From Candidatus Hermodarchaeum yapensis (GTDB lineage Archaea; Asgardarchaeota; Hermodarchaeia; Hermodarchaeales; Hermodarchaeaceae), in assembly GCA_016840405.1 (NCBI GenBank), contig JAEOSK010000001.1, forward strand, positions 32,001-96,000: a stretch of 64,000 bases of DNA, written 5' to 3'. The notes beneath the pieces are model-generated. The model searched no databases. It was given only the letters and a program-made list of their open reading frames with translations, and was not told the DNA's origin. The position numbers were made by a program, and so were the translations under genes. Position 1 is the first letter of the stretch; every line of letters begins with the position of its first letter. Below are positions 39,418-44,444 of this stretch, piece after piece.

Positions 39418-40581
39418 ATGTCAACACAGAAGAATTGGATTCTCGTTCTAATCCCCCTGGTCTTGGCCTCAGTAATCACACCTGTAACCAGCACCCACTT
39501 TACACCCATTCAAGATCGTGATTATTGGCCCACCGCTGGATGGCGAATACAACCACCTGAATCTCAAGGAATGAATTCTACTCGACTAGACGAATTTTGG
39601 AATCACATACACCCAATAGATGGACTAACAGGTTTTCTGCTAATCCGTAATGGATACCTGTTGTATGAAGCTTACTGGCCAAACTTAGGACCAGACACTC
39701 TTGGGACAGTAGCATCAATTACCAAAAGCATTTCCGCAACAATCCTCGGTGCTGCGATAGCAGATGGTTATGTCACAAGCGTCAATGATTCGGTCTTGGA
39801 CTATTTTACAGACCGAACTATTGCAAACCCGAGTCCACAGAAAGACGCTATGACCATATGGCATTTGCTCACGATGTCCTCGGGATTTGAGTCTAGTGCA
39901 CAAACAATGGGATTGGCGCCAGACTGGATTCAGTATGTCCTCGATTTACCAATGGTCAACGATCCAGGAGCGGTTTGGAACTATGATGCTGGTTGTTCAC
40001 ATCTCATCTCGGCAATCATTTCCCAAACCACAGGTATGTCTATGGCGACGTATGCTCAAGCTCGGGTTTTGGGACCGATGGGAATCTCGGTTTATGAATG
40101 GCCCACAGATCCACAAGGAATAACAACGGGATTTGGAGGGCTAGAATTAAAATTACGAGACTTAGCAAAATTTGGCTACCTATTCTTGAATAATGGTACC
40201 TGGGGTCCTTTTCAAATTATACCCACAGAATGGGTGGCGGCCTGCACTCACTCATACTTTAATTTCACTATTGATGGTTATGGGTACCAGTGGTGGGTTG
40301 ATCCAGAACTCTCTGGATATTCCATGCGTGGGGCTGGTGGAAAGCGAGTTTTTATTCTTCCTGAACAAGACCTTGTACTCGTCTTTGCTGGAGCTACCAC
40401 CTATAGCATTTTAGACTTCTATTCGCTCTTCGAGGAATTTCTTTATCCCGCCATCATCGGAGATACCACTAGTTTACAGCAACCCGTTCAAGAGCAGGTT
40501 TTACCATTCGTGCTCGTACTCCTGATAATCATCATCCCACTTGTCGTAGGAACCAAGTACATACAAAGAAAACGGTCCTAA
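39418..40581 (+). CDS. Secreted serine hydrolase, paralog 3
   Basis: SITK, WNYDAG, same architecture as paralog 1. Confidence 0.9.
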   Translation: MSTQKNWILVLIPLVLASVITPVTSTHFTPIQDRDYWPTAGWRIQPPESQGMNSTRLDEFWNHIHPIDGLTGFLLIRNGYLLYEAYWPNLGPDTLGTVASITKSISATILGAAIADGYVTSVNDSVLDYFTDRTIANPSPQKDAMTIWHLLTMSSGFESSAQTMGLAPDWIQYVLDLPMVNDPGAVWNYDAGCSHLISAIISQTTGMSMATYAQARVLGPMGISVYEWPTDPQGITTGFGGLELKLRDLAKFGYLFLNNGTWGPFQIIPTEWVAACTHSYFNFTIDGYGYQWWVDPELSGYSMRGAGGKRVFILPEQDLVLVFAGATTYSILDFYSLFEEFLYPAIIGDTTSLQQPVQEQVLPFVLVLLIIIIPLVVGTKYIQRKRS

Positions 40582-40737
40582 AACACAATTGATACTGTTC
40601 AGTATATCGGAACGAATACGTCGCCTACTCTAGATGTGTAAAAACCTTTTTCTGCGCCCCCTCCAAACCTTGATTGAAGCCAAGGCGACAGACTCCTTAC
40701 GGTCGACTCAAGTTCCTTTGCTAGAAGGTGTGTTAGT

Positions 40738-41757
40738 ATCCCTCGTGGGCTAGTTCTCAGTCATTGGGACACCAAAGAAGGACTCAAGATACTAGCCAAT
40801 TATCCGGCATCCTTAGAAATTGATGCCGAACAACTTTCGATGATGTTTTTCAACTGCGCTCCCGAAGAATCAGAGCATATTTTCAAAGTCTTTCCTTCAA
40901 AGGATGTAACAGAGCGCGCAGCAGTAGCTTGCACCAGAAGTCTGCGTGATGGCATCGAAGATGATATCTTCATTACTGCACTCCTCACCGCCGAGGAAGA
41001 AGGATCTGTGTACGAAGAAATCCTCACCGCTACACTTCAACGGCTCCTAAAATTGAAAGGCGATCCGGTAAAAAAGCAACGCAGGTATCGTCAAATCCTC
41101 TCTGACAGTTATCGAAAAATCGAACGCCGTGGGGGCTCACGCGACCGCTCTCTCTGTCCTTACATGTATGAACGACCCATAAGAGACGATGAGATTACAT
41201 CCTTCTGTCGTGTTGTCAAAAAACAATGCTATCTCACCATCTATGAAATGCCCGGGTATCCCCAATGTCCGCGATATATTCGCCGTCAACGACAAATCCA
41301 ACTTGCCAACGCCCGTCAACTGGTACGTGCAGGTATCCAGCGTATCCTTGAAGACCACGACCAACAACGTCAAGACGCTAAACACCATAAACCAGGTACC
41401 TGGAGCGAACCCATTCATACAATTCTTGATCGCGTTTTTGCTGTCCTCAGTCTGTCAGAAAAAACCGAAGATCTCTCCCATAATATCGTCGAACACGTCG
41501 GGAAAGAAGGGCTTTTTCAGGGGCATCCTCGCCCCATTGTTGCTGCTTCTATCGCCTATTATGCTGCAAAACAGACTGGCGACTCTCTACCCGAAAATGA
41601 TATAATCGAACTCGTCGGATGTTCTCGTACTTCCCTACGCCGAAACTACCGGGAACTTCGAAGCCTTCTCGGCTCTGATATAAAGAAACTCCCCATGCAA
41701 AAACCACGGCGGCGACGTACAAGCACCCAAGATAAAGCGGTTACTCGCGCTGAATAA
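40738..41757 (+). CDS. Longin/uDENN-like domain + Cys4 Zn-finger + single TFIIB(TFB) cyclin/HTH domain fusion
   Basis: Frame is open 34 codons upstream of the track start (IPRGLVLSHWDTKEGLKILANYP...) and matches the N-terminus of the 42846 protein; C-terminus LSLSEK...GLFQG....VAASIAYYA...IIELVGCSRTSLRRNYREL matches the TFB C-terminal repeat. Confidence 0.75.
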   Translation: MPRGLVLSHWDTKEGLKILANYPASLEIDAEQLSMMFFNCAPEESEHIFKVFPSKDVTERAAVACTRSLRDGIEDDIFITALLTAEEEGSVYEEILTATLQRLLKLKGDPVKKQRRYRQILSDSYRKIERRGGSRDRSLCPYMYERPIRDDEITSFCRVVKKQCYLTIYEMPGYPQCPRYIRRQRQIQLANARQLVRAGIQRILEDHDQQRQDAKHHKPGTWSEPIHTILDRVFAVLSLSEKTEDLSHNIVEHVGKEGLFQGHPRPIVAASIAYYAAKQTGDSLPENDIIELVGCSRTSLRRNYRELRSLLGSDIKKLPMQKPRRRRTSTQDKAVTRAE

Positions 41758-41778
41758 ACAACAAGGAGAACACAACAT

Positions 41779-42648
41779 ATGATTCACAATGTCTTCATCA
41801 TGAACCGTGACGGACGTATCGCCTTCCACCGCCAATACTGGTCAGTTGATATTACCACCGAAATCCGCCAAGAATTCATTGCCACCTACAAACACTTCGA
41901 AAAGGACCTGGGTCCCACCGTCGACCTTCCAATCCACGTTAAAAACAATAAATTCCTCTACACCGATCTGGGCACCCACCTTCTCCTTGTCTTCGCGGTC
42001 GATACCAGCGACGAAGATGAAACCATCCGTGAATACCTCAAAAAAACCCGTGAACTTCTCATCACTAAATACAGCCACGAAATCGACTCATACATCCAAA
42101 ACCCCGTTCCCCTTGGCCAAGCCTTTCAAGAATTCGCCAAAGAACTTGACAGCGTTATCGTCACCATGCTCAAAATCTGCCTCCTCGGACAAGGCGGCGT
42201 CGGCAAATCTACCATGCTCAAACTCCTCACCGCTGACAGCATCCCTGGCGAATACTACCCCACGATTGCGGTCGACATCGAAACCCTCCAAGGCGTCCGA
42301 TTTGGTCCCTATGAATTGGCGGTCTGGGATTTTGCAGGTCAAGACCGCTTCCGTTCACTCTGGAACTATTATCTCCGTAATGCCGATGCCGTATTGTTAG
42401 TAACCGATTCGACGTTGAAGAATGTGCTCGAAACCCGCGACATTCTTGAGGTTGTACGGAAAAACGCGCCTTCCTCAATTGTCTGGTCGATTGCAAACAA
42501 ACAGGATCTCCCCGGAGCACTAGCTCCGAAACTGGTTCAACGTATTCTCGGTGTTCAATCCTACGGGCTAGTAGCAATTGATCCCCGGTATCGCGAAGTG
42601 CTTTATAAGATAATTCTCGGGGCTGTAGCTGAAGCGACTACGGACTAG
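41779..42648 (+). CDS. Longin-like domain plus Arf/Rab-superfamily small GTPase
   Basis: MIHNVFIMNRDG longin-like start; GQGGVGKS, YYPTI, WDFAGQ, ANKQD. Confidence 0.92.
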   Translation: MIHNVFIMNRDGRIAFHRQYWSVDITTEIRQEFIATYKHFEKDLGPTVDLPIHVKNNKFLYTDLGTHLLLVFAVDTSDEDETIREYLKKTRELLITKYSHEIDSYIQNPVPLGQAFQEFAKELDSVIVTMLKICLLGQGGVGKSTMLKLLTADSIPGEYYPTIAVDIETLQGVRFGPYELAVWDFAGQDRFRSLWNYYLRNADAVLLVTDSTLKNVLETRDILEVVRKNAPSSIVWSIANKQDLPGALAPKLVQRILGVQSYGLVAIDPRYREVLYKIILGAVAEATTD

Positions 42649-42845: not shown

Positions 42846-44444
42846 ATGCCACACGGATTAAGTGTATGTAGATGGGACGATAAAGTAGGTCTCCGCATTG
42901 TGGGAGTGTATCCGCGTAATCTTGGTGTGTCCGAAGATGACATGTTGCGTGTGTTTACGGCGCATGCGATGGGCAAACCGGAAGCGGGTTTTTTGACGAT
43001 GACTCTTGAGGGGACGAATCTGGCGGTGGCCTCGTTTTATACGGGCATTTTGCGGGGTCGGGACCAGTTTTGTATTATGTTGTTTATGGAGCTCGATGAA
43101 GAGCCCCGAAGTTATGAAGAGGGTTTGACATTAGCGTCAAGTGAGATTGTCGAAAATATTGGTGAACCAGAGTTTGTAGAATACATGGGTGAAGTGTTTG
43201 AGAAACTGAAGCGGATGGTGGAACTGTCTGTAGAGCAGCGACTTGCCAAGGTGTTTGTTGATCATGAGACGCGGTTATTGATGCATAAGCTAGCCCGCGG
43301 TGGCATCCCTGCTGAAGAGTTGCGAGAGTGGCTAGAGTTACAGACTGGGAAACACTACCCTGATTTAGGTCTAGTTACCTTACCGTTACTGCGGAGCGGG
43401 TTAGTAGAAGAAGACTGGATTAATGCAGTCTCAGACAACTGTGTTTTCTTGGTGAATGACCTGTTGGGCGCGCGGTTTCCACCCGAGCAAGTGATCAAAC
43501 TGGCCAAGGGTGGCGGATTGAATAAGGAACAGTTACGCGAACTCGAAACCCGAGTGAAGAGCTTCTTTGAAGGGTATCAGTGGACGGAAGAAGACACCAT
43601 CATGATGGGGCAGCTGCTTCTTGACCCAGATATTTACGATGTGACAAAGACGTTGCGTCGGAAAATTACGCATAAATCCGAGTTAGCTGGTGTCGTCGAA
43701 AAAGAAGCCTCCCTTGATAATGTGCTTCGGCGATTAGAACAGGCACAAGTGATTACAAAATTTGGAGCGAATGCCATCGAGGTAGCAGCTAAAGATGATC
43801 CGCTGATTGTATTAATGGCGGATGTACACTTCGAATCTTTCTTCCCAGAGTTCTTGGTTTTACGAATTCAAGAGCGACTCGAGGCAAAGGATATTCATCC
43901 GGATATCGCAAAACGGCATCTTGAGTTACTCAGTGAAACGTACATGCGTATGCGTGAGAAGATGAAGGAACGCAAGAAGCGGAAAGAGGAAGAAGAGAAA
44001 GCCGAGGAAGAACTCCCTGAAATGGAAGGGGAAATGGTACCTCCTCCTGAACCAGCAGAAATTGAAACTCCTGAGGTCCTCGAATCGGCGCCCGCTGACG
44101 AAGAAGAAGCTAAGCGAATTAAAAAAGAAGAAGAGATAGCGCGAAAAGAGGAACAGAAGCGGCTCAAAGAAGAGGAAAAGCGTCTAAAGGCTGAAGAGAA
44201 ACAGAAGAAGAAAGACGAAGAAAAGGCGCAGAAAGAGGAAGAGAAGAAGCGTAAGGAAGAGGAGAAGCAGAAGAAGAAGGAAGAGGAACAGAAGCGTAAG
44301 GAAGAGGAGAAGCGCCTGAAGGAAGAGGAGAAGCAGAAGAAGAAGGAAGAGGAACAGAAGCGTAAGGAAGAGGAAAAGAAACGCAAAGAAGAAGAGAAGC
44401 AAAAGAAGAAGGAAGAGAAGAAAAAAGAGAAGGAATCCTCTTAG
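42846..44444 (+). CDS. Longin/uDENN-like Asgard-type protein with winged-helix-like middle and ER/K charged tail
   Basis: MPHGLSVCRWDDKVGLRIVGVYP N-domain; about 110-aa E/K/R repeat tail. Confidence 0.75.
   Translation: MPHGLSVCRWDDKVGLRIVGVYPRNLGVSEDDMLRVFTAHAMGKPEAGFLTMTLEGTNLAVASFYTGILRGRDQFCIMLFMELDEEPRSYEEGLTLASSEIVENIGEPEFVEYMGEVFEKLKRMVELSVEQRLAKVFVDHETRLLMHKLARGGIPAEELREWLELQTGKHYPDLGLVTLPLLRSGLVEEDWINAVSDNCVFLVNDLLGARFPPEQVIKLAKGGGLNKEQLRELETRVKSFFEGYQWTEEDTIMMGQLLLDPDIYDVTKTLRRKITHKSELAGVVEKEASLDNVLRRLEQAQVITKFGANAIEVAAKDDPLIVLMADVHFESFFPEFLVLRIQERLEAKDIHPDIAKRHLELLSETYMRMREKMKERKKRKEEEEKAEEELPEMEGEMVPPPEPAEIETPEVLESAPADEEEAKRIKKEEEIARKEEQKRLKEEEKRLKAEEKQKKKDEEKAQKEEEKKRKEEEKQKKKEEEQKRKEEEKRLKEEEKQKKKEEEQKRKEEEKKRKEEEKQKKKEEKKKEKESS
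44256..44420 (+). repeat. Coding tandem repeat, 66-nt unit (EEEKQKKKEEEQKRKEEEKxxK)
   Basis: 53 nt identical starting at 44256 and 44322; third partial unit follows. Confidence 0.85.

Follow-up and report, generated by a model that had tools for sequence, protein, structure and literature searches.

In a 64,000-nt stretch of Candidatus Hermodarchaeum yapensis DNA (assembly GCA_016840405.1, contig JAEOSK010000001.1, positions 32,001-96,000, forward strand), hereafter the window, we describe a gene whose predicted product joins a longin domain to a cyclin repeat of the TFIIB/TFB type. This is a new architecture, made of a longin domain and a TFB repeat together with an unclassified four-cysteine (Cys4) module, and its gene carries a conserved non-canonical start codon. 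We tentatively read this fusion protein as a low-copy, gene-specific regulator that is predicted to bind DNA and that is tied by its longin domain to a GTPase module; this is the interpretation to which we lean, with some reserve. All positions are given in window numbering, position 1 being the first letter of the stretch. The gene was compared with 18 orthologous loci (L001-L018) from species-representative genomes, with 11 further loci (L031-L041) found by a phylum-wide search, some of them from the same genomes as L001-L018, and with two distant loci (L057 and L059) from metagenome contigs. The submitters had mostly labelled the source genomes of the orthologues Hermodarchaeota.

The reading frame is open from 40678 (after a TGA at 40675-40677) to the stop codon at 41755-41757. 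The annotated open reading frame (ORF) has 305 codons, from ATG 40840 to the stop at 41757, and the open frame between 40678 and this ATG contains no ATG, GTG or TTG. The first-pass annotation, made from the sequence of the window, had extended the frame to ATC 40738, and this extension stands. Translation from this codon yields a predicted product of 339 residues. The aligned codon is ATC or ATT, and never canonical, in 20 loci (the window, the 18 representatives and L059), and the AGGTG core of a Shine-Dalgarno sequence, with a spacing of exactly 7 nt, is invariant in the window, L001-L018, L031-L041 and L059. This core is complementary to the 3' end of the genome's own 16S rRNA (GGATCACCTCC), and 7 nt is also the modal GGTG-to-ATG spacing over about 3,000 long ORFs of the genome, in which position 40738 is the sole case of AGGTG, 7 nt and ATC or ATT in a long ORF without a canonical start upstream. 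An in-frame stop lies two codons 5' of the start in 14 of the 18 representatives. Codons 2-34 vary by codon position as 0.30/0.13/0.54, resembling codons 35-67, whereas the 33 nucleotides from -45 to -13 vary evenly (0.69/0.67/0.63) and without periodicity. Coding-type variation thus starts at the ATC codon, which indicates that the upstream 34 codons, whose lack of conservation would have counted against the first-pass annotation by its own terms, evolve as coding sequence.

Gene callers give ragged, shortened N-termini throughout the family, most of them at or near ATG 40840, and lose residues I1, P2, G4, L5, V6, S8, W10, D11, K13, G15 and L16; of the 31 residues that are invariant in the N-domain, 11 thus fall within residues 1-16. 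The choice of the callers could mean that the annotated 305-residue product is the real protein and the upstream 34 codons an untranslated remnant of an older N-terminus. Initiation at AUC or AUU is, to our knowledge, not established in archaea, which also speaks for the shorter product; a literature search on such starts in archaea found nothing specific. However, it would leave unexplained the coding-type substitution in codons 2-34, which hold the most invariant residues of the domain, and the position of the Shine-Dalgarno sequence before the ATC/ATT codon and not before the ATG. Four orthologues (L015-L018) have no methionine at the position of 40840, and the shorter product would drop beta1, beta2 and half of alpha1 from the modelled longin fold. 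In L057 (3989-4015), moreover, the spacer is 1 nt shorter; this brings an ATG, along with a GTG, into frame four codons before the ATC, and the database protein of this lineage then includes the same N-terminus. L057 may be a natural case of a near-cognate start giving way to a canonical one. We consider the 305-residue product very improbable as the true protein and conclude from the comparison of sequences that the 339-codon gene is real and has a selected near-cognate codon as its predicted start. The protein is probably made at a low level, since an AUC or AUU start is weak even though the Shine-Dalgarno spacing is optimal. A contig of a relative from a wetland RNA library spans the Shine-Dalgarno sequence and codons 1-26; the contigs from RNA libraries span the locus only in part and show neither strand nor transcript ends.

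The domain calls of the first-pass annotation (a longin-like N-domain, four cysteines, one TFB-type repeat nearest to repeat 2 and a basic tail) all hold, both in the sequence and in an AlphaFold2 (AF2) model built with 27 relatives. This model has a mean predicted local distance difference test score (pLDDT) of 79 and a predicted template modelling score (pTM) of 0.47. It lays out a longin-type domain at residues 1-130, a cysteine hairpin region at 140-177, a long helix at 178-213, a five-helix bundle at 223-311 and a disordered tail. In a Foldseek search, the six matches at E <= 0.001 were GATOR1, FLCN-FNIP2, SEA-complex and Lokiarchaeal longin entries, with the TFB of Pyrococcus woesei next. 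A language-model atlas search with the entire protein produced nothing above threshold, its leads (0.81) being short clusters with a single TFIIB repeat.

As modelled, the N-domain is a longin fold of the NPRL2/FLCN/SMCR8/C9orf72 class. Its topology is beta-beta-alpha-beta-beta-beta-alpha-alpha, without the N-terminal helix of roadblock domains (DSSP of the model: E4-11, E15-22, H30-40, E48-52, E61-70, E73-82, H89-104 and H110-130). VIA-align placed it at Z 13.6 both with chain D of a GATOR1 complex (9o5d_D, NPRL2; root-mean-square deviation (rmsd) 2.8 Å, 130 residues) and with the Lokiarchaeal longin 8yqg_B (133 residues), and Foldseek gave E values of 2e-4 to 1e-3 to GATOR1, FLCN-FNIP2 and Lokiarchaeal longin entries. 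A shape search of the ESM Atlas returned NPRL2, SMCR8, C9orf72 and DENND11/Avl9 as well as uncharacterised Asgard clusters; a Pfam scan at E <= 1 gave no Folliculin, NPR2 or C9orf72 family match. The invariant residues W10, D11 and G15 lie on the beta1-beta2 hairpin, and the candidate arginines for a catalytic finger are R60 (invariant), R67 (18 of 19 sequences) and R70 (12 of 19). The N-terminus had also been reported to align with that of the protein encoded at 42846, and BLASTP bears this out: residues 1-130 match residues 1-123 of that protein, from residue 1 in both, at E 2e-8 and 25% identity.

The cyclin repeat was recognised by several searches. Pfam TFIIB (PF00382) matches the window's protein at E 0.0022 and 18.4 bits, under the cut-off of 23.6 bits, and 9 of the 27 relatives at E <= 0.01 (best 4.7e-6), while the match to the NCBIfam archaeal TFB (PRK00423, E 5e-5) covers positions 224-310 of 312, that is, the terminal repeat. 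In a phmmer search of 1.8 billion representative proteins, the matches beyond the protein's own family cover only residues 210-330 or so (E to 3e-9), and all six of those checked carry Pfam TFIIB repeats. Foldseek superposed the P. woesei TFB with an rmsd of 1.2 Å over 87 residues at 23% identity; VIA-align scored the C-domain at Z 13.3-13.9 with TFB/TFIIB (13.9 with P. woesei TFB) and at about 12 with CDK cyclins. The assignment to repeat 2 rests on sequence profiles, because the structural scores of TFB repeats 1 and 2 tie (Z 13.9 vs 13.3): the NCBIfam match extends to the C-terminal end of that profile, and when the domain's own profile is run against the five two-repeat TFBs of this genome, repeat 2 outscores repeat 1 in each of them. 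By this criterion the cyclin repeat is derived from TFB repeat 2; its helix-turn-helix is almost invariant, and R301, R302 and N303 on the recognition helix are fully so.

The fusion protein is nevertheless not a TFB, as ribbon, reader, linker and first repeat are all absent. The lack of ribbon, reader and first cyclin repeat had been noticed in the first reading of the sequence; indeed, the Pfam scan gave no match to the N-terminal zinc ribbon (PF08271), there is one repeat only and the N-terminus is occupied by the predicted longin fold. Its own genome encodes at least six canonical two-repeat TFBs (contigs C73, C18, C65, C40, C10 and C8, with a tandem pair on C73), so that the fusion protein, a strongly diverged derivative, comes in addition to them and is not the basal factor. 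At least six TFB genes in a 2.7-Mb, 86%-complete genome represent a sizeable expansion of basal factors.

These data bear on the proposal that the protein is a competitor or alternative factor of general transcription, in which a lone repeat 2 would occupy BRE-like DNA (BRE, B recognition element) or TBP at many promoters and displace TFBs without recruiting polymerase. The origin of the repeat, whose recognition-helix pattern aligns with that of 1ais_B, and the availability of at least six canonical TFB genes for modulation fit this proposal. It took as given that TBP and the BRE are contacted by the C-terminal TFB repeat; where TBP is concerned this is only partly right, since repeat 1 and the cleft between the repeats provide most of the grip on the TBP stirrup in TFIIB/TFB-TBP-DNA structures. 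With repeat 1 missing, a lone repeat 2 would be a poor basal factor or TBP-dependent competitor, and the parts that contact polymerase are missing too. Moreover, the repeat is no more than about 20-26% identical to TFB repeat 2, nothing in TFBs corresponds to the Cys4 and basic-helix module, and the low abundance expected from the weak start codon fits a global competitor poorly. We regard a TFB competitor or alternative basal factor as unlikely, and as less likely than either a gene-specific regulator or a protein scaffold.

Between longin domain and cyclin repeat lie the four cysteines named in the first-pass annotation (C140, C157, C164 and C177), which are invariant in the 27 relatives and presumably form a metal site. 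Their spacing, C-x16-C-x6-C-x12-C, differs from that of a CxxC ribbon, and a beta-hairpin is predicted in this region by AF2 at modest confidence. Folded alone, the Cys4 and helix module reached a pLDDT of 71.5 (56-71 in the cysteine region). Searches with the isolated module found no fold match (best VIA-align Z 4.0, driven by the long helix; best Foldseek E 2.7 in the PDB), and the phmmer search found no match to the middle region outside the protein's own family. Ranked by mean pairwise identity among 19 full-length sequences, the helix-turn-helix (residues 284-308) is the best-conserved segment of the protein at 91%, the basic helix (residues 179-205) has 86%, the Cys4 region and the whole cyclin repeat 76% each, and the longin domain 61%. 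N-domain and cyclin repeat have isoelectric points (pI) of 5.5 and 6.6, against 9.6 in the middle region and 11.5 in the tail, in agreement with the basic tail first described. The high identity of helix-turn-helix and basic helix, the invariant R301, R302 and N303 and the basic middle region and tail suggest that the C-terminal half binds nucleic acid.

Table 1. Position, strand and basis of the features of the fusion-gene locus, in window numbering
Feature	Position	Strand	Basis or remark
Conserved block 1, TTCAGTATMTCGGAA..., candidate site for a regulator, some 135 nt ahead of the start	40598..40617	+	Alignment
A5/T5 block GTGYAAAAACCTTTTTCTGY (A5CCT5), putative BRE/TATA-like promoter element	40636..40655	+	Position only
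Conserved block TTGATTGAAGCCAAG-GACAGA, where the 5' leader probably begins	40670..40694	+	Alignment
Shine-Dalgarno core AGGTG	40726..40730	+	7 nt before the start codon
Start codon ATC	40738..40740	+	ATC or ATT in the window, 18 representatives and L059
Full coding sequence of the fusion protein	40738..41757	+	339 codons and stop
Longin domain, residues 1-130, with W10-D11-x3-G15 hairpin	40738..41127	+	AF2, Foldseek, VIA-align, ESM Atlas shape search
Four-cysteine module C140, C157, C164, C177, presumed metal site	41155..41268	+	Invariant in 27 sequences
Long arginine-rich helix, residues 178-213	41269..41376	+	pLDDT 80-95
Single TFIIB/TFB-type cyclin repeat, residues 223-311	41404..41670	+	Pfam, phmmer, NCBIfam, VIA-align
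Helix-turn-helix of the repeat, residues 286-307	41593..41658	+	Aligns with the repeat-2 helix-turn-helix of 1ais_B
Disordered basic tail, residues 313-339	41674..41754	+	pLDDT < 50, pI 11.5
Downstream gene, N-terminal longin-like domain and Arf/Rab/Roc-type small GTPase	41779..42648	+	Pfam Roc, Arf, Ras, E 1e-17 to 1e-20
Third gene, paralogous longin N-domain, about 250 further residues, K/E-rich tail	42846..44444	+	BLASTP, synteny

The distribution of the fusion was surveyed in 400 genomes of the phylum, the window's family included. The full-length protein is present in all 18 other genomes of this family (14/14 and 4/4 in two genera) and was found in none of the other 380 or so; some match occurs in 181 of the 400, and matches to the N-domain only, which come from the family of the 42846 protein, are widespread. 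The gene order is strictly kept. In all 18 loci and the two distant ones a gene for a longin-GTPase starts about 20-45 nt after the fusion gene, and as far as the DNA reaches, the 18 loci show the order fusion, longin-GTPase and 532-aa longin protein (42846-type), with a convergent RNase HII gene behind the last wherever the DNA continues. The two distant loci, L057 and L059, likewise keep the fusion-GTPase pair and a 42846-type gene. This synteny in every locus examined strengthens the link between the fusion protein and the neighbouring GTPase gene. The two genes are probably co-transcribed as part of one operon; a 350-nt contig from a wetland metatranscriptome (a relative, 15 differences) runs from the last part of the fusion gene into the first part of the GTPase gene (41659-42008) and is compatible with co-transcription, although it shows neither strand nor transcript ends.

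The longin-GTPase has 289 residues with intact P-loop, DxxGQ and NKxD motifs. It is 70-99% identical across the family, with a mean column identity of 88% and an almost invariant G domain, which suggests many constrained interfaces; it is far more conserved than the neighbouring genes. In sequence, its N-domain resembles neither of the cluster's two other longin domains. A complex prediction for longin residues 1-135 and the full GTPase encoded at 41779, both given as alignments, speaks neither for nor against binding (score 0.02, mark 0.32). In the two distant loci a second, paralogous longin-GTPase gene lies directly upstream of the fusion gene (L057 3055-3879, L059 3103-3846; about 43% identical to the downstream one), which therefore has GTPase genes on both flanks. 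The 42846 family comprises proteins of about 365-400 residues that start with MPxG...WDxxxG and have no Pfam match, the window's copy having an additional K/E-rich tail of about 150 residues. This family (L042-L046 examined) is widespread in Asgard archaea and may be the archaeal counterpart of C9orf72/FNIP/NPRL-type subunits.

A cluster with three longin-bearing genes would also be expected if the fusion protein were a scaffold subunit of a longin-platform GTPase-activating protein (GAP) or guanine-nucleotide exchange factor (GEF), in which the N-domain would pair with the 42846 protein or with the longin domain of the GTPase, and the C-terminal half would engage in protein-protein contacts only, without DNA. 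The closest structures to the N-domain are indeed GAP-type longins (GATOR1, FLCN-FNIP2, SMCR8 and C9orf72), and the WDxxxG hairpin, the invariant R60 and the near-invariant R67 fit such a role. Cyclin folds are generic protein-binding modules, as the Z of about 12 to CDK cyclins recalls, and the near-neutral pI of the repeat and the C-terminal domains of eukaryotic NPRL2/3, FLCN and C9orf72, which work in this way, point in the same direction. On the other hand, helix-turn-helix and arginine-rich helix are conserved above the longin domain, the repeat is nearer to the DNA-reading repeat 2 of TFB than to CDK cyclins, tail and middle region are basic, and the GP motif of catalytic GAP longins is incomplete, with GL in every orthologue. 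We regard such a scaffold role as the main rival and a serious one, though as less likely than the regulator.

Upstream of the gene, three blocks (Table 1) are all but identical throughout the window's sequence group and are separated by DNA that varies freely within it. Block 1 is conserved in 11 sequences (the window, L003-L005, L007-L009 and L011-L014), in which the A5/T5 block is near-identical as well; block 1 is absent from the divergent L015-L018. Genome-wide, block 1 has no excess of matches over a reversed-pattern control, and the A5/T5 block is effectively unique, its sole other match having 2 mismatches. In the third block neither a stable nor a covarying structure was found, and an Rfam search of 40400-41000 gave no match. 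The three blocks may be the promoter, operator and leader of the three-gene cluster. A hairpin sequestering the Shine-Dalgarno sequence and start codon, which RNAalifold proposed although without compensatory pairs, was rejected: the single-sequence folds of seven orthologues had z values of -0.7 to +1.7.

We favour a gene-specific DNA-binding regulator, because the putative nucleic-acid elements are the most conserved parts of the protein, their flanks are strongly basic, the recognition-helix pattern of repeat 2 is kept and a weak start suits a regulator. The C-terminal half (Cys4 module, basic helix, helix-turn-helix and basic tail) would contact DNA in a gene-specific manner, without acting as a basal factor. 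The N-terminal longin domain would dock on the neighbouring GTPase module through longin-longin pairing or contact with the G domain, and the nucleotide state of the GTPase would alter the availability of the regulator or its affinity for DNA. Several points weigh against this proposal. With a pI of 6.6 the cyclin repeat is in itself close to neutral, and the loss of ribbon, reader and first repeat removes the known contacts with TBP and polymerase. In eukaryotic longin GAP subunits such as NPRL2/3 and FLCN the C-terminal domains are helical and bind no DNA, so that the TFB-derived domain could be a protein scaffold as well. Given the pTM of 0.47, the relative orientation of the domains in the AF2 model is uncertain. 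Finally, the upstream blocks recur nowhere else in the genome, and no regulon or operator is evident there. A more specific version of the regulator, which we put forward as a conjecture in which we place less trust, is a GTPase-to-transcription path within one polypeptide: the longin domain would read or set the state of the GTPase and pass it to the TFB-derived head with its Cys4 module and arginine-rich helix, the dose being held low by the AUC/AUU start. If this is true, an AUC/AUU start conserved across genera would stand as an unusual documented example, among Archaea, of near-cognate initiation under selection.

In Asgard archaea, whose cells are mostly without endomembranes, genes for small GTPases and for longin or roadblock proteins are numerous. 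A longin domain joined to a DNA-reading module beside a near-invariant GTPase would give these proteins a concrete output, namely gene regulation, and, if true, would resemble in structure the eukaryotic pathway in which longin GAPs act through Rag GTPases on transcription factors. Independently of this, the start codon lends itself to comparative study as a clear instance of a non-canonical start kept by selection in an archaeon. The first-pass annotation knew of no described protein with this architecture, and a full-text search likewise gave no paper in which Asgard, longin and TFIIB occur together; no description of a longin-TFIIB or longin-cyclin fusion was found in the literature. Some homologues bear the automatic NCBI label 'cyclin family protein', which means that only the C-terminal part has been recognised so far. 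In databases the family appears under no other names than 'cyclin family' or 'hypothetical' because the callers cut the most conserved part at the AUC/AUU start. Published work on Asgard archaea covers longin-GTPase fusions (PMC10933270) and FLCN/SMCR8-type longins (PMC12290439), and not the fusion protein.

Compared with known systems, the C-terminal domain shares with repeat 2 of TFB/TFIIB (1AIS, 1D3U) the five-helix repeat, the C-terminal helix-turn-helix and the pattern G-x-S/T-x-x-S/T-L/V-R-x-x-Y-K/R-E-L. It differs in that a single repeat of low identity comes after a longin domain, Cys4 module and basic helix, which occur in no TFB, in place of B-ribbon, B-reader, B-linker and first repeat. 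Sulfolobus TFB3 is likewise a partial TFB, serving as an accessory regulator; it keeps the N-terminal ribbon and loses the DNA-binding core, whereas the fusion protein does the reverse and adds a signalling domain. The start codon resembles that of bacterial infC (IF3), a conserved near-cognate AUY codon behind a good Shine-Dalgarno sequence, which is kept by selection and gives low or regulated output. Here, however, another domain of life and another gene are concerned, and feedback is neither known nor implied for the fusion gene. The 42846-type family has a paralogous N-domain, aligned from residue 1, and belongs to the same gene cluster, but it is phylum-wide, starts with ATG, has another C-terminal half and lacks R60 at the aligned position.

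The longin domains of GATOR1 (NPRL2/3), FLCN-FNIP and C9orf72-SMCR8 have the same fold and topology and are the best structural matches, and the fusion too is linked to a small-GTPase gene; its C-terminal partner is TFB-derived, whereas the longins of the GAP complexes have DENN or winged-helix partners. GAP-type longins are defined by a GP motif at the start of beta2, plus a WD motif in C9orf72, whose essential residues are W33-D34 and G38(-P39) (PMC12290439). The WD...G hairpin of the fusion protein has the same spacing and position as W33-D34...G38 (PMC12290439), but position 16 is leucine in 19 of 19 fusion sequences where the GP motif has proline, and R60, R67 and R70 are no more than candidates for the catalytic arginine finger that would lie next to the GP motif in longins of the FLCN, NPRL2, SMCR8 and C9orf72 type. 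The Lokiarchaeal Roadblock-Longin protein (PDB 8YQG) provides an archaeal example of the same fold (Z 13.6, 133 residues). For Asgard archaea, longin and roadblock domains are reported to form dimeric platforms and also to occur fused to GTPases (Tran et al. 2024, PMC10933270). In MK-D1 the GTPase genes generally lie outside operons with longin genes (PMC10933270), whereas here three longin-bearing genes form a conserved cluster, one of them with a transcription-factor module.

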